Below are positions 39 to 10,095 of a DNA stretch of 64,000 bases, piece after piece. The translations under genes were made by a program, and so were the position numbers. The notes under the pieces were generated by a model. That model saw nothing but the letters and a program-made list of their open reading frames with translations, did no database searches and was not told the DNA's origin. Origin of the DNA: an uncultured Anaerolineae bacterium (GTDB taxonomy: Bacteria > Chloroflexota > Anaerolineae > JAFGEY01); the NCBI GenBank assembly GCA_964449465.1, contig CAYVBK010000015.1, positions 1 through 64,000 of the forward strand, in the 5' to 3' direction. The first letter of the stretch is position 1. The number at the start of each line of letters is the position of its first letter.

Positions 39-299
39 TCAGGGTAATGCTAGAACTGCACGGACATCAAAGTTTCTGGCGTCGCATTTGAACGAGTACG
101 AAGGAGAACAGTTCGGGATGTTGTCATGCCAACAACTTGCATAGCAGCTGCTGGCACCGATGACAGTCCCCCAGCATACACCGGCATGCACAGGTTGTGC
201 TGGTATTGCAAGAAATGCCAGTGCGCCGGCCACCACTGCTGCCACCGATACACACCAAGAAAGCGTCTTGAGCAGTATCCACTTGGTTGAAATTGCCAT
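39..299 (-). CDS. Small secreted Cys-rich protein, 87 aa, with an N-terminal signal or anchor and 5 Cys in the mature part.
   Basis: ORF 39..365 was trimmed to the ATG at 299, which sits 6 nt after a strong GGAGGAAAGGAG SD. Hydrophobic segment LSWCVSVAAVVAGALAFLAIPAQPVHA is followed by GVCWGTVIGASSCYASCWHDNIPNCSPSYSFKCD. No family recognised. Confidence 0.45.
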   Translation of the reverse strand: MAISTKWILLKTLSWCVSVAAVVAGALAFLAIPAQPVHAGVCWGTVIGASSCYASCWHDNIPNCSPSYSFKCDARNFDVRAVLALP

Positions 300-1004
300 A
301 AGAATCTCCTTTCCTCCAAAAACCCGGTTTGTACAGCCAAATTTCATATGAAATACAAATTCCATTATATCATCACAAGTGCGTTTTGTGCCTTACAGCA
401 TCCTTACAGTTTTGGGGCTTCCGCCAGCAAATACCCTTTGCCTTTGACCGTCATCACCACCTCCGGTCCAAGCTTGTTCTTGAGGCGGTGAACGGCCGTC
501 CAGACCGCATTGAGATCGACGCAGGACGCGCAGCCCCACACCTCGCGGCGCAGCGTCTCGAAGGCAACCACCTGTCCCCGGCGGCGGGCCAGGCACGCCA
601 GCAACGCGGTTTCGAGTGAGGTCAATGATATGGTCTCGCCTTCGCGAGTCGCCCGGCCGGTGCGCAAATCGGCGAGCCATTCACCCACCCGAAACTGCTC
701 TCTGACCTGCCGCGCCGCCCAGGCCTCCTGCACGGTCGCCCAGACTTGTTTCGGTTGGAACGGTTTGGTCAAATAGTCAAACGCGCCCCGTTTCATCGCC
801 TCCACTGCCTGCGCCACCGTCGCAAAAGCGGTGAGCAGAATCACCTCCGGCGCAGGGTCGAGCGTTTTCAGCCGCTCCAGCAGCTCGATGCCCGACAGCC
901 CCGGCATGACCACATCCAGCAAAACCAGGTCTATATTGTTCGTGCTGGCTAAATGCCAGGCTTGAACGCCATCGACAGCCGGCCATACAACACACCCATA
1001 ATGG

Positions 1005-1140
1005 ACTAGGAGCGTGCTGAAAAACTCCCTCACTACCAAGACACAGAGGACACAAAGCATTTCTAGCGACTCAAAAGTATCGTAAACCTTTGTGTTCTCA
1101 GTGTCCTTTGTGATGGAAACCGACTTTTTCAGCGGCCTCC
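1005..1140. mobile_element. MITE-like ~135 bp element (copy A), inserted into the response-regulator copy 1 coding sequence.
   Basis: Terminal inverted repeats CTAGGAGCGTGCTGAAAAA ... TTTTTCAGCGGCCTCC and an internal inverted repeat (acaaaggacac...gtgtcctttgt). Same family as 30605..30738, 33455..33605 and the 61954..62360 array. The uninterrupted paralogs read cataatgggccaggtacg across the insertion point. Confidence 0.75.
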
Positions 1141-1249
1141 CAGGTACGTCGCCAGAATATCCCGCGTGTCGGGGTCGTCGTCGGCCACCAACACGCACGG
1201 CGCGCAGCCGATCATTTTCCGCCTCCGCCAATGAACCTGGATGTGCTCC

Positions 1250-1277
1250 ATTATATGCAGAGTGAGGGGAGGGGCAA
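1250..1277 (-). promoter_or_regulatory. Sigma70-like promoter (TTGCCC-N16-TATAAT) of response-regulator copy 1.
   Basis: On the minus strand reads TTGCCCCTCCCCTCACTCTGCATATAAT. The same module is conserved upstream of all four regulator genes in the window. Confidence 0.4.
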
Positions 1278-1450
1278 ATGACCGGATGAAGGCGTTGGCT
1301 GGCAATGAGAAAAAGATTGCGACAAGACGTCACGTGGTGCTTTGACGACACGATCACAGATGAAGAAAAAAAGCCGGAAAGCACAACAATGCCTCCCGGC
1401 CACTCGGCAGTCCGATCATATCAGTTTTTCTTGAACTCAAGCCGTCCGAT

Positions 1451-1732
1451 CTAGTTGCACATCCAGAGACAGTTGTTCATTTCATAACCGCTCAAAAAAG
1501 GGCCATACTGGCTGATTTGCCGACGTGTTTCAGGATCGTACAAAAGTTCATGCTGAATTTCATAAACAATCCAGGCACTGTATCCATTCCAGTAGCTTCT
1601 ATAGCACACATTTACCACTCCAGTAGGAACGCGTCCGCACTGCGCAGCTACAAGCATAATACCAGTGATGAACAGGGCCACCACTATCATCATTGAGCAA
1701 ATTAACACAAACCACCGATTCTTGATGGTCAT
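1451..1732 (-). CDS. Small membrane-anchored Cys-containing protein, 93 aa.
   Basis: ORF trimmed to the ATG at 1732, which follows SD AAAGGAGAA and lies 14 nt after the stop of the upstream lipoprotein gene (translational coupling). TM segment FVLICSMMIVVALFITGIMLVAA is followed by a W/Y/C-rich tail. Confidence 0.45.
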   Translation of the reverse strand: MTIKNRWFVLICSMMIVVALFITGIMLVAAQCGRVPTGVVNVCYRSYWNGYSAWIVYEIQHELLYDPETRRQISQYGPFLSGYEMNNCLWMCN

Positions 1733-1746
1733 AAACCATTCTCCTT

Positions 1747-8237: not shown

Positions 8238-8548
8238 AGCTTTTTATGTCAAGGGGGCCAGCCCCTTGACAAACCCCGTCGAGGGTGCTTTGCCCCCCGC
8301 CCCCCCCCGAAAACCGGGGTGTTTTCTGTCGTCGCAGACCAGGCAAAGGCCATAGCCAGACATACGAACGACTTGTGCCTGGTTTTCAGCCCCTGCCGAC
8401 AGAATGTGGGCGGCTTTTGGGGGGTCTGGGTGGGCGCAGCCCCCTACAGTGAAATGGGCATCAGTCCTTTTTCAGACGGCAGTTCATAAAACATCGTTTT
8501 TAATCTAAAAGGTTTTTATATGTCCATCAAAAATGAACGAACTAAAAG
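8188..8548. repeat. Duplicated ~360 bp structured non-coding element, copy 1.
   Basis: About 90% identical to 40293..40654. Contains a perfect hairpin TGTCAAGGGGGCCAGCCCCTTGACA (8247..8271), a poly-C/G hairpin ccccccgaaaaccgggg, and the first 17 codons of the small-ORF start (MVKYDRAISrTLEKMSE). Confidence 0.6.
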
Positions 8549-8573
8549 TTTTTCTCCTCATTCCTTTGCAATA

Positions 8574-9215
8574 CTATTTGCCTTTTCTGCCATCTACGAC
8601 CAGGGTCATCATCTCATTCTCTGTGTGCACATACCCGGCATTAATAATAACGCCTACTTCATCTATCATATAAGCAAATGGCACACTATTTATCTGATAA
8701 TTATGTGCAACTTCTTGCTGCATCTCTGAAACGTATAGCACCGGAAAATTGAAGCTATTTGTTTGTGCAACACGTTGAGCCTCTTCTTGTGTACCCAGCA
8801 GAATCATCGCTACTTGCACATCCTTCCGACTATGGCTGAATTTATCCAGTTCGGGCCACATCTCAACGCAGCTACTGCACTGTGGGGATGAAAAAACCAA
8901 GACCAATGGCTTTCCGGCAAAATCAGTCAATGATATCTGGGACCCAAGCGTGTCAGTTAAAACAAAAGGCGGAGCATCAATACCAATTTCTAACCCTGTT
9001 CCGTGCGCCGTTTGCGAAGATTGTTTCATTAATTCGACCTGATTTTGTGCTAGCGACTTGAGCGGGGCCGCAGCCGCCAATACCTCTTGGTGTACTTGAT
9101 TCATCCGCACGAACAGGCCAATGATGGCCACCATCAACAGGATGACGATGCCCATCAACATCATCAAGAGCGTTTCCAGGCGCGCTTCATGGCGGGTATC
9201 CGTTGTCTCGGTCAT
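8574..9215 (-). CDS. Membrane-anchored thioredoxin-fold thiol-disulfide oxidoreductase (TlpA/redoxin-like).
   Basis: ATG at 9215 follows SD AAGGAGA. N-terminal TM segment, then a thioredoxin-like core with a CSSC motif (FSSPQCSSCVEMWPEL). Confidence 0.65.
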   Translation of the reverse strand: MTETTDTRHEARLETLLMMLMGIVILLMVAIIGLFVRMNQVHQEVLAAAAPLKSLAQNQVELMKQSSQTAHGTGLEIGIDAPPFVLTDTLGSQISLTDFAGKPLVLVFSSPQCSSCVEMWPELDKFSHSRKDVQVAMILLGTQEEAQRVAQTNSFNFPVLYVSEMQQEVAHNYQINSVPFAYMIDEVGVIINAGYVHTENEMMTLVVDGRKGK

Positions 9216-9337
9216 GGTTTCTCCTTGAGGCAACAAAACAAAATGCCAACAGGCTTTCAGTCCGTTGGCGTTTTCAAGGTGCGATCAAACACCCTTTATT
9301 ATATCACCACAAGTGCGTTTTGTGCCTTACAGCATCC

Positions 9338-10015
9338 TTACAGTTTGGGGGCTTCCGGCAGCAGGTACCCTTGGCCTTTGACCGTCACCACTATTTCCGG
9401 GCCGAGCTTGTCCCTGAGGCGGTGAACGGCCGTCCAGACCGCATTGAGATCGACGCCGGACGCGCAGCCCCACACCTCGCGGCGCAGCGTCTCGAAGGCA
9501 ACCACCTGTCCCCGGCGGCGGGCCAGGCACGCCAGCAACGCGGTTTCGAGTGAGGTCAATGATATGGTCTCGCCTTCGCGAGTCGCCCGGCCGGTGCGCA
9601 AATCGGCGAGCCATTCACCCACCCGAAACTGCTCTCTGACCTGCCGCGCCGCCCAGGCCTCCTGCACGGTCGCCCAGACTTGTTTCGGTTGGAACGGTTT
9701 GGTCAAATAGTCAAACGCGCCCCGTTTCATCGCCTCCACTGCCTGCGCCACCGTCGCAAAAGCGGTGAGCAGAATCACCTCCGGCGCAGGGTCGAGCGTT
9801 TTCAGCCGCTCCAGCAGCTCGATGCCGGACAGACCCGGCATCACCACGTCCAACAGAGCCAGGTCTATGCCATTGGTCATTGCCAGCTCCCAGGCCTGCT
9901 CGCCATCGGCAGCCGGCCATACGGCGCACCCATAATGGGCCAGGTATGTCGCCAGAATATCCCGCGTGTCGGGGTCGTCGTCGGCCACCAGCACGCGCTG
10001 CATACGAGCGTCCAT
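9338..10015 (-). CDS. OmpR/PhoB-family response regulator, copy 3, intact.
   Basis: Identical to copy 2 over about 200 of 225 aa, with the same SD, promoter and 3' flank. Confidence 0.85.
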   Translation of the reverse strand: MDARMQRVLVADDDPDTRDILATYLAHYGCAVWPAADGEQAWELAMTNGIDLALLDVVMPGLSGIELLERLKTLDPAPEVILLTAFATVAQAVEAMKRGAFDYLTKPFQPKQVWATVQEAWAARQVREQFRVGEWLADLRTGRATREGETISLTSLETALLACLARRRGQVVAFETLRREVWGCASGVDLNAVWTAVHRLRDKLGPEIVVTVKGQGYLLPEAPKL

Positions 10016-10049
10016 TCCCCACCTCCGCCAATGAATTTGGATATGCTCT

Positions 10050-10077
10050 ATTATATGCAGAGGGGGGAGAGGGGCAA
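10050..10077 (-). promoter_or_regulatory. Sigma70-like promoter of response-regulator copy 3.
   Basis: Minus strand reads TTGCCCCTCTCCCCCCTCTGCATATAAT. Confidence 0.45.
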
Positions 10078-10095
10078 ATAACCGGATGAAGGAAT

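Follow-up and report, generated by a model that had tools for sequence, protein, structure and literature searches.

Several bacterial loci encode a secreted signal together with the partner that binds it, as is known for the pherotype loci comQXP of Bacillus, agr of Staphylococcus, and comCDE/blp of Streptococcus. These regions are hypervariable between close relatives within conserved flanks, and they include a response regulator and a promoter element common to several operons. Here, we describe an array that resembles them in an uncultured Anaerolineae bacterium (Chloroflexota; assembly GCA_964449465.1, contig CAYVBK010000015.1, positions 1-64,000 of the forward strand). This whole stretch of 64,000 nucleotides (nt) is called the window in the following text. 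The array encodes two lipoproteins, each with two solute-binding protein (SBP) modules in tandem, three small secreted Cys-rich proteins (mini-proteins), a membrane-anchored thiol-disulfide oxidoreductase, and three copies of an OmpR-type regulator gene. Our preferred but tentative reading, to which we give clearly less than an even chance, is that the array consists of interchangeable ligand-binder cassettes that act outside the cytoplasm, share one control unit, and feed envelope signalling. Unlike in the pherotype loci, the binder here would be a tandem-SBP lipoprotein and not a membrane kinase, and there is no adjacent kinase. In addition, where those loci have a short modified peptide, the signal of the array would be a multi-disulfide protein of 47-82 amino acids (aa) that uses Sec for export, and it is accompanied by a dedicated thiol-disulfide enzyme.

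The loci of sublancin (sunA-sunT-bdbA-sunS-bdbB), pediocin (PedC), lantibiotics (LanI/LanFEG/LanRK), and lactococcin 972 are also similar to the array. In both, a small secreted peptide with Cys is encoded together with a thioredoxin-fold helper and with a surface lipoprotein as its possible binder. An OmpR-type regulator, ABC transporters in the vicinity, and polymorphic cassettes are further common points. However, there is no match in sequence or fold between them, the peptides of the array are anionic, and the candidate immunity protein would be a double SBP of 850 aa. Furthermore, the array has no double-glycine leader, C39 exporter, modification enzymes, or small membrane immunity protein.

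The use of periplasmic binding proteins or sugar-binding modules for sensing rather than transport is known from LuxP-LuxQ, TorT-TorS, ChvE-VirA, and RsgI of Clostridium thermocellum. Similarly, members of the tandem-SBP family are fused to anti-sigma domains or lie beside genes of extracytoplasmic function (ECF) sigma factors or two-component systems. However, the ligands of LuxP, TorT, ChvE, and RsgI are small molecules or glycans, and their kinase or anti-sigma partners are known, whereas the suspected ligand here is a co-encoded protein. Compared with SBPs of the CUT1 type (MalE, TMBP, AbnE, and Lmo0181), each half of the lipoproteins has the same fold with clear homology, and the lipid anchor is as in monoderm bacteria. 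The differences are that two full modules lie in one chain, that no cognate permease is among the Pfam families listed, and that exporters, redox enzymes, and regulators are encoded next to them.

Two further systems resemble parts of the array. In the case of MauD and the small subunit of methylamine dehydrogenase, an anchored TlpA-like/DsbA-like enzyme is devoted to an exported protein that is small, rich in Cys, and contains Trp, but the array includes no mau genes, cofactor-forming enzymes, or dehydrogenase large subunit. The enterotoxin STII of Escherichia coli, with DsbA and MacAB-TolC, links MacB-type pumps to a disulfide-bonded mini-protein, but no MacB is among the Pfam matches listed for the window. 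In the literature, we found no described counterpart of the two mini-protein families, of the tandem-SBP family with its contexts, or of the assembly of swappable cassettes. The parts are known protein types, and the assembly is of the kind in which a secreted peptide and its cognate binder form a cassette, with a real chance of something more distinct.

Tandem-SBP Lipoproteins

All genes of the array lie on the minus strand, and the order of transcription is ABC exporter pair, reg3, TlpA-like gene, small3, lipo2, reg2, lipo1, small2, reg1, and small1 (table 1). For comparison, we used about 85 Chloroflexota loci (labelled L001, L002, and so on), and the relatives are contigs of metagenome-assembled genomes (MAGs).

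Both lipoproteins contain two SBP_bac_1 stretches in Pfam, and the profile of the family agrees when it is compared with PDB: each half aligns end to end with oligosaccharide SBPs of ~400 aa (5f7v, 6rjy, and 1eu8), the matches per half reach about 1e-36 (4e-36), and the two complete modules are at profile positions ~47-441 and ~466-870. The initial annotation of the window, which was made from the sequence without database searches, had already assigned two SBP-like domains to each protein. The two lipoproteins share 25% identity. In lipo1, the lipobox Cys is at position 23, after the signal helix, and an AlphaFold2 (AF2) model with a mean predicted local distance difference test (pLDDT) score of 81 consists of the signal helix, a disordered tether of ~30 residues, and two MalE-like modules. 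When this model was used as a query, Foldseek found single-module sugar SBPs only, which matched each half of the query (E to 1e-22), and no PDB chain spanned both modules (TM-score on query ≤ 0.38).

We found 115 tandem-SBP homologs and 77 genomic loci. The homologs come from Chloroflexota in every case with a named source, and the source annotations label them "multiple sugar transport SBP". An N-terminal zf-HC2 anti-sigma domain is present in 11 of the 115 proteins. In the neighbor-joining tree of 109 tandem SBPs, the members adjacent to type-A mini-proteins (see below) formed one clade, lipo2 was placed in a deep-branching clade with other TlpA-associated SBPs, and the members adjacent to ABC ATPases were placed in other clades.

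To describe the genomic context, 97 immediate same-strand neighbours of the tandem-SBP genes at the 77 loci were surveyed, and the 25 most frequent Pfam families were recorded. ABC_tran was found in 28 of the 97 neighbours, and 12 had a thioredoxin fold (7 AhpC-TSA/Redoxin and 5 Thioredoxin_4/DSBA). There were also 6 neighbours with Response_reg, 4-5 ECF sigma factors, and 4 each of Peptidase_S26 (signal peptidase I), HlyD, and ABC_membrane. None of these 25 families was BPD_transp_1, a glycoside hydrolase, or a histidine kinase. In L023, the order is FtsX-like permease, HlyD-like protein, ABC ATPase, tandem SBP, and ABC ATPase. In L020 and L079, signal peptidase I and an ABC exporter of ~610 aa accompany the tandem SBP, and a homolog from Roseiflexaceae (L055) adjoins an ECF sigma factor and a pair of response regulator and histidine kinase. 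In addition, RHS/Imm26/HNH genes or RiPP (ribosomally synthesized and post-translationally modified peptide) enzymes are present in some module loci. Because of the neighbour families, the exporter contexts, the zf-HC2 fusions, and the neighbouring sigma factors and regulator-kinase pair, the gene context links the tandem-SBP family to export and envelope signalling rather than to import. Within the window itself, neither a CUT1 permease (BPD_transp_1) nor an importer ATPase is among the Pfam matches listed, in agreement with the earlier remark that the lipoproteins have no adjacent permease.

Mini-Proteins

The three mini-proteins had been regarded as unrelated to each other. This is correct for small3 (type B), but small1 and small2 share one type (type A). 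Type-A proteins have a signal peptide ending in P-V-x-A, a C-G-x8-C motif, a strand-like middle, and a C-terminal G-C-P-x-F-C-N, and four Cys are invariant across 19 sequences. The mature part of small2 has 63 aa with these four Cys. The signal peptide of small1 ends with ...PAQPVHA/G, and the mature part has 47 aa and 5 Cys. This protein is probably truncated, as judged from the family alignment: it halts at the middle strand, is the shortest member, and is without the C-terminal CPxFCN. Type-B proteins have a conserved signal peptide (LTxMLxASxVLA...A), while the mature part is unalignable, rich in Trp and Tyr, and contains 6-10 Cys. In small3, the signal peptide is ...MLLASFVL...TVYA/I and the mature part has 68 aa and 8 Cys. 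The length of 126 aa previously given for small3 is probably too great. Because this start overlaps the promoter-like site of the gene itself (8252-8223), we discarded it, and translation likely begins at 8195 or 8174, which gives 112 or 105 aa.

Signal peptides with V/A-x-A sites were read from the sequences, not with SignalP, in all members. The predicted mature forms (n = 31) have 47-82 aa and are mostly anionic or neutral, with a mean net charge of -1.8. The number of Cys is even in 26 of the 31, and the proteins are poor in His and Met; thus, disulfides would fit.

An ortholog of small2 was found in L002, where it has 93 aa, lies downstream of the lipoprotein gene, and is 91% identical. 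The ratio of nonsynonymous to synonymous substitution rates (dN/dS) between the two genes is 0.20 in frame and ~1 in the other two frames, and by this measure small2 is under purifying selection. Furthermore, we counted open reading frames (ORFs) that encode 45-170 aa, contain a hydrophobic segment near the N-terminus, and have four or more Cys after it, within 450 nt and on the same strand. Such small ORFs were 39-fold enriched near tandem-SBP genes at the 77 loci (23 near vs 11 elsewhere, binomial p = 2e-22). The small ORFs are thus conserved. A hidden Markov model (HMM) of type A gave 13 matches (E ≤ 0.001) among 1.84 billion cluster representatives, all but one of ~93-119 aa. A comparison with bacteriocin families had been suggested in the initial annotation, but no match of the mini-proteins was found in Pfam, NCBIfam, or PDB even at permissive thresholds (at Pfam E ≤ 10, ten mini-proteins gave noise). 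A single-sequence search with small2 returned only the protein itself. With an alignment of 7 sequences, AF2 gave a low-confidence model of small2 (pLDDT 66), for which Foldseek found nothing below E = 0.4.

Other small proteins also lie beside tandem SBPs. A third kind (L016 12555-12803 and L061 802-1080) has an N-terminal NKKxTDFIxLEDGxIGxKAA segment, which the hydrophobic stretch follows; the middle is rich in His, CPLPC is at the C-terminus, and the protein may be a separate leader-peptide class. In Chloroflexaceae, another secreted protein of 128-151 aa precedes the tandem SBP (L062 1476-1874, L071 326-712, L072 3501-3956, and L075 9366-9821), and one kind of these partner proteins matches DUF2690. 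To judge from these sequences, the partner slot seems to be taken by unrelated small secreted proteins in other lineages.

Conservation of the Modules

The order of TlpA-like gene, type-B gene, and tandem-SBP gene recurs in L002, L016, L036, L039, and L044. Upstream of it, there is an intact regulator gene in L039, as in the window, and a deleted regulator remnant in L002. Type-A modules carry a membrane-anchored DsbA-like protein of ~232 aa (L004, L011 twice, L013, and L069). Arrays of four or five DsbA-like/type-A modules are found in L080, and the sister module with a DsbA-like gene is also present in L084, where the type-A module is followed by a YknX-like fusion protein and then by an FtsX-like permease. 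Oxidoreductase genes were found in every module type. In the reverse direction, the type-A proteins P0119, P0120, and P0122, which were retrieved with nothing but the profile, each adjoin a tandem SBP. The lipoprotein and the small Cys protein, which the initial annotation had described with the regulator as a repeated module, thus recur together in related loci. An OmpR-type regulator is often part of the module, and the order of regulator, TlpA-like gene, small Cys gene, and tandem-SBP gene is seen in L002, L016, L036, L039, and L044.

Cassette Polymorphism and Repeats

The region of L002 from 124 to 4014 is 88% identical to the window from 5106 to 1219, and this includes the lipo1 ortholog (88%). 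Beyond the conserved stretch, L002 has a regulator remnant, in which PA (the promoter-like site ahead of the regulator genes) is joined directly to the final ~135 nt of the gene and PB (the conserved 3′ flank), and then a TlpA-like gene. The encoded TlpA-like protein shares 71% identity with that of the window in the anchor and 50% in the catalytic domain. The lipoprotein lipoB of L002 is 24% identical to lipo2, and the mini-proteins are without detectable similarity. L039 has again another cassette set, with PA fragments ahead of nearly every cassette; among its SBP genes, one shares 93% identity with lipoB of L002, and a fragment at the contig end has 77% DNA identity to lipo2 of the window. 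Candidate signal and receptor genes therefore vary together within conserved flanks among the window, L002, and L039, all of which come from MAG contigs. This pattern and the repeats fit an exchange of cassettes by recombination at the repeated regulator/promoter units.

Two observations concern these repeat units. When L039 12416-12569 is aligned with the window 5270-5118, the PA block reaches the exact position of the regulator ATG, and an SBP gene begins there instead, which suggests a cassette replacement precisely at the start codon. In addition, L001, a Logan contig of 3217 bp that was seen in at least 20 sequencing runs and contains lipo1 and small2, ends at regulator repeat units on both sides. 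Arrays with regulator repeats, which interrupt short-read assemblies, are probably fragmented or collapsed in many of them and under-represented in MAGs.

A hairpin-forming repeat of 134 nt interrupts reg1. Its inverted ends, read from the sequence, are GGAGGCCGCTGAAAAA ... TTTTTCAGCACGCTCC, and there are six copies in the 64 kb (84-91% identity) and one in L002. It resembles a miniature inverted-repeat transposable element (MITE), being non-coding and short with inverted ends and multiple copies. Rfam contained no family that matched positions 1-14200 or the 134-nt repeat array. Another dispersed repeat, of ~310 nt, lies between the TlpA-like gene and small3 and provides the -35 box of the promoter-like site of small3. 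Its two copies are 89% identical, and the second one lies just 3′ of a gene for a surface protein of 1489 aa with CARDB and PPC domains.

The small genes had been reported to be lower in GC content than the flanks. This is confirmed, and the low-GC stretch also includes the TlpA-like gene and extends through small3 to the 5′ part of lipo2 (0.42-0.47 vs 0.60-0.66 in the flanks). The translational coupling to the lipoprotein genes holds only in part: lipo1 and small2 are the sole tightly coupled pair, with a gap of 14 nt and an AAGGAG site, but the gap between small3 and lipo2 is 110 nt. The last gene of the array is small1, and the window edge comes right after it.

Regulators and the Shared Control Unit

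The three regulator genes have the architecture of a receiver domain followed by Trans_reg_C in Pfam. Response_reg matches reg2 and reg3 with E = 5e-29 to 6e-30, and Trans_reg_C matches all three copies with E = 2e-16 to 3e-18. In reg2 and reg3, the phospho-acceptor residues, read from the sequence, are all kept (DDD, LLDVVMPG, LLTAF, and TKPF). The earlier statement of three near-identical regulators, each with its own promoter, is right in the number of copies and in the site ahead of each, but reg1 is broken. The 134-nt insertion introduces a stop after codon 28, and the 5′ fragment (1215-1129) terminates at this stop within the insertion. The remnant ORF (1060-404, 218 aa) is without the first strand and the acidic DD pocket.

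The repeat unit is larger than the regulator gene, and it comprises PA with a ribosome-binding site, the gene, and the 3′ flank PB. DNA alignment and a promoter scan found an identical PA site (TTGCCC-16-TATAAT) ahead of each regulator, and the 3′ parts of the genes are 100% identical over ~340 nt across the three copies. A box that resembles TGnTATAAT is part of PB, and two hairpins come after PB at reg2 and reg3. The second of them is followed by a U run, and its sequence differs between reg2 and reg3 by a compensatory change. The PB box may simply be a promoter, and a conserved hairpin with a U run sits ~30 nt downstream of it.

When compared with NCBIfam, the regulator scores below the threshold of CusR/CopR-type families (112 bits, cut-offs 279-420), and the scores of MtrA, RpaB, CseB, and PhoB equal or exceed those of the CusR/CopR type. 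The reported absence of a histidine kinase is confirmed, as neither HisKA nor HATPase_c is among the Pfam matches listed for the window. Apart from a NarL-type regulator, the only large signalling protein noticed elsewhere in the window is one of 1398 aa with adenylate/guanylate cyclase, AAA_16, and TPR parts (24577-28773, minus strand), about 15 kb off the array.

Oxidoreductase and ABC Exporter Pair

The initial annotation had also noticed a membrane-anchored thioredoxin-like protein with a CSSC motif, and this is fully supported. The protein matches AhpC-TSA (4e-15) and Redoxin (1e-12), has a visible N-terminal hydrophobic anchor, and is conserved in the module. A weak match to SCO1-SenC (E = 0.005) was also found. 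The best NCBIfam matches are ResA and MauD, far below the cut-offs (56 vs 170 and 50 vs 189). An equivalog-level identity as ResA, TlpA, or MauD was rejected because of these scores and because the neighbours are a mini-protein and an SBP, not cytochrome-c or mau genes. The TlpA-like proteins have a common motif, VFSS(T/P)xCxxC. Furthermore, TlpA-like and DsbA-like enzymes have a homologous N-terminal membrane anchor, which is followed by R-[MI]-N-Q-V-[HY]-Q, and from this alignment one anchor appears to be joined to two different thioredoxin-fold domains.

Each of the two ABC half-exporters upstream of the array (10096-11997 and 11994-13868) contains ABC_membrane and ABC_tran. The pair has one degenerate ATP site: the Walker B of abc1 is LLVFDD, in which the catalytic Glu is missing, and abc2 is without the canonical LSGGQ, with LSAGE in the translation. 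Pfam found no C39 peptidase domain in the pair. We considered whether the pair belongs to the exporter family that recurs beside tandem SBPs and rejected this, since the similarity is only at the level of the nucleotide-binding domain (31-35% over ~230 aa). The heterodimeric exporter predicted earlier is thus present with a degenerate site, but it is not orthologous to the recurring exporters; it is best described from its sequence as a generic heterodimeric exporter that would be adjacent to the array without being part of it. No MacB or HlyD gene is among the Pfam matches listed for the window. Further upstream, the minus strand encodes a protein of 816 aa with major-vault-protein shoulder and Vault_3 repeat domains (15761-18211). 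Beside this vault-like gene lies one for a protein with AAA-ATPase_like and PDDEXK_9 (14107-15735, minus strand), and BatA/VWA and MoxR-type genes lie downstream.

Table 1. Coordinates of the array features, repeat copies, and oxidoreductases with the common anchor (window positions unless a locus is given)
Feature	Position	Strand	Description
small1	39..299	-	type-A mini-protein, 86-aa precursor
reg1 3′ flank	300..403	-	PB box TTGTGATGATATAAT, then 14-nt palindrome ATTTCATATGAAAT, then ribosome-binding site of small1
reg1	404..1215	-	OmpR-type regulator gene, disrupted
MITE-like insertion in reg1	1007..1140	-	134 nt, terminal inverted repeats
PA1 promoter-like site	1250..1277	-	TTGCCC-16-TATAAT
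Terminator-like hairpin 3′ of small2	1372..1401	-	13 pairs and T run
small2	1451..1732	-	type-A mini-protein, 93-aa precursor
lipo1	1747..4305	-	852-aa tandem CUT1-type SBP lipoprotein
reg2 3′ flank	4338..4442	-	PB box and two hairpins, U run behind the second
reg2	4443..5120	-	intact OmpR-type response regulator, 225 aa
PA2 promoter-like site	5155..5182	-	TTGCCC-16-TATAAT
lipo2	5293..7746	-	817-aa tandem SBP lipoprotein, lipobox LSGC
small3	7857..8195	-	type-B mini-protein precursor, start 8195 or 8174
small3 promoter-like site	8223..8252	-	TTGACA-18-TATGAT, 11/12 matches
~310-nt dispersed repeat	8240..8548		between TlpA-like gene and small3; second copy 40345-40654
TlpA/ResA/MauD-like oxidoreductase	8574..9215	-	thiol-disulfide oxidoreductase, 213 aa, membrane-anchored, VFSSPQCSSC
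reg3 3′ flank	9225..9337	-	PB box, hairpin, and U run
reg3	9338..10015	-	intact OmpR-type response regulator, 225 aa
PA3 promoter-like site	10050..10077	-	TTGCCC-16-TATAAT
ABC exporter pair	10096..13868	-	633 and 624 aa; own promoter-like site 14000-13972
134-nt repeat copies	1007-1140; 30605-30737; 33474-33602; 61957-62359; L002 7927-8047		61957-62359 holds three copies head to tail
Oxidoreductases with the common anchor	9215-8574; L004 6594-7295; L011 2609-3298 and 11775-12470; L013 2924-3622		

Function of the Array

From the gene order and its conservation, we infer that the mini-protein, the folding enzyme, and the tandem-SBP lipoprotein act together outside the membrane, and most simply the mini-protein would be the ligand of the lipoprotein. 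A possible sequence of events is as follows. The small gene would give a precursor with a Sec-type signal, which signal peptidase I would cut after V/A-x-A. The membrane-anchored thioredoxin-fold enzyme of the module (TlpA-like here and DsbA-like in the sister type) would then oxidise the 47-82-aa mini-protein fully. The folded mini-protein would be bound by the membrane-tethered lipoprotein with its tandem MalE-type modules, and the two would co-diversify. A membrane kinase, whose gene would lie outside the array, may report occupancy of the lipoprotein to the OmpR-type regulator of the repeat units. This regulator would act on PA/PB before itself and before every cassette, which would produce a self-reinforcing, variant-specific loop like that of a pherotype. 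Finally, the repeated regulator/promoter units could serve as recombination handles that shuffle cassettes between strains.

Several results weigh against this proposal. No histidine kinase is listed among the Pfam families of the module neighbours or, as mentioned above, for the window. The conserved promoter block stops short of the usual binding region of OmpR-type activators, and the regulator is absent from some arrays (L080). Tandem-SBP genes outnumber mini-protein genes, and arrays with SBPs only exist (L070). Clefts of the MalE type are known for oligosaccharides, not for proteins of 6-8 kDa. In addition, the correlation between SBP and mini-protein distances (mirror-tree) was uninformative because it was driven by two close pairs, and the differences in module order come from MAG contigs that are possibly chimeric at repeats.

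Bacteriocin-like antagonism is almost as probable. Under this explanation, the mini-proteins would be Sec-dependent disulfide toxins against related bacteria, the tandem-SBP lipoproteins would capture the toxin, own or foreign, on the membrane surface, alone or with exporters, and the regulator would induce the cassettes. It is known that thiol-disulfide enzymes are dedicated to the loci of sublancin (BdbB) and pediocin (PedC), and that lantibiotic loci include lipoprotein immunity and an OmpR-type regulator. The hypervariable cassettes and the surplus of orphan binder genes speak for antagonism. The recurrence of the SBP family near FtsX/HlyD (MacB/YknX-like) pumps, ABC exporters, and dedicated signal peptidase I, and the RHS/Imm26/HNH genes or RiPP enzymes of some module loci, also agree with it. 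However, the anionic or neutral character of most mature peptides is untypical of antimicrobial peptides, the mini-proteins match no bacteriocin family even at permissive thresholds, an immunity protein of 850 aa would be unusual, and the anti-sigma fusions of the SBPs point to sensing. Furthermore, the ABC pair of the window has no C39 domain and is not of the recurring exporter type. We ranked the signalling loop slightly above the bacteriocin explanation for four reasons. First, each cassette comes after a regulator and a promoter unit that the cassettes have in common. Second, the SBP ectodomain is a sensor input in other lineages. Third, the mini-proteins are without features of antimicrobial peptides. 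Fourth, ligand and binder change together between close relatives. The initial annotation had favoured Cys-rich signalling or a bacteriocin-like system over nutrient uptake; the locus is indeed not an ordinary nutrient-uptake locus, but nothing favours either of the two decisively.

The gene contexts with pumps could also mean that the mini-proteins are cargo (hydrophobin-like, sheath, or surface proteins) and that, once folded outside the membrane, they are handed by the tandem SBP to MacB-type or other exporters, which would carry them across the outer layers. The closest parallel is the Sec/DsbA/MacAB export of the STII enterotoxin of E. coli. The SBP members within FtsX-HlyD-ABC ATPase clusters, the type-A module directly before a YknX-like fusion protein and an FtsX-like permease, the signal peptidase I genes dedicated to and located beside SBPs, and the oxidoreductase genes of every module type are consistent with such binding-protein-assisted secretion or surface assembly. 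We consider it unlikely, because hypervariability among close relatives would be surprising in structural cargo, the contexts with regulators, anti-sigma domains, and sigma factors would be unexplained, and the Pfam matches listed for the window include no MacB or HlyD.

It is quite unlikely that the lipoproteins are ordinary sugar SBPs that serve CUT1 importers encoded elsewhere, with the small proteins being unrelated or carbohydrate-binding accessories. The homology of both halves to oligosaccharide SBPs such as 5f7v, 1eu8, 6rjy, and MalE and the source annotations of the homologs are in favour of this, and the Trp/Tyr-rich, disulfide-rich composition of the mini-proteins recalls small carbohydrate-binding modules. 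However, permeases and glycoside hydrolases are missing from the frequent neighbour families, no permease is listed for the window, the two-module arrangement is without a match among solved structures (best TM-score on query 0.38), and the tight, enriched, and reciprocal link to mini-proteins and oxidoreductases would be left unexplained. Metal (copper) or redox homeostasis with a CopR-like regulator, a TlpA-like reductase, and Cys-rich metal-binding proteins is very improbable. The sub-threshold similarity of the regulator to CusR/CopR and the weak SCO1-SenC match of the TlpA-like protein are in its favour, but other families equal or exceed CusR/CopR in score, the even Cys counts with few His and Met fit disulfides, and neither the SBP partner nor the hypervariability would be explained.

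Implications for Chloroflexota

Returning to the ligand-binder cassettes, a wider generalization can be formulated, which as a whole is speculative and somewhat unlikely. In Chloroflexota, the hypervariable, disulfide-rich mini-proteins would be received by the tandem MalE-type lipoproteins encoded with them, so that filamentous bacteria would have a polymorphic system for signalling or for telling self from non-self. The binding-protein modules would have proteins and not sugars as ligands, regulators, anti-sigma factors, and exporters would take the place of importers as their partners, and whole cassettes of ligand, receptor, and foldase would be swapped by way of the repeated regulator/promoter units. 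Should the pairing of mini-protein and lipoprotein hold, the commonest bacterial binding-protein fold would gain a new use, in which it recognizes protein ligands and serves signalling or export instead of uptake, and bacteria would have a new family of disulfide-rich mini-proteins with its own folding enzymes. Furthermore, it would open one of the few approaches to how cells recognize or antagonize each other in Anaerolineae, which are abundant, mostly uncultured, filamentous bacteria of sludge, sediments, and soils.

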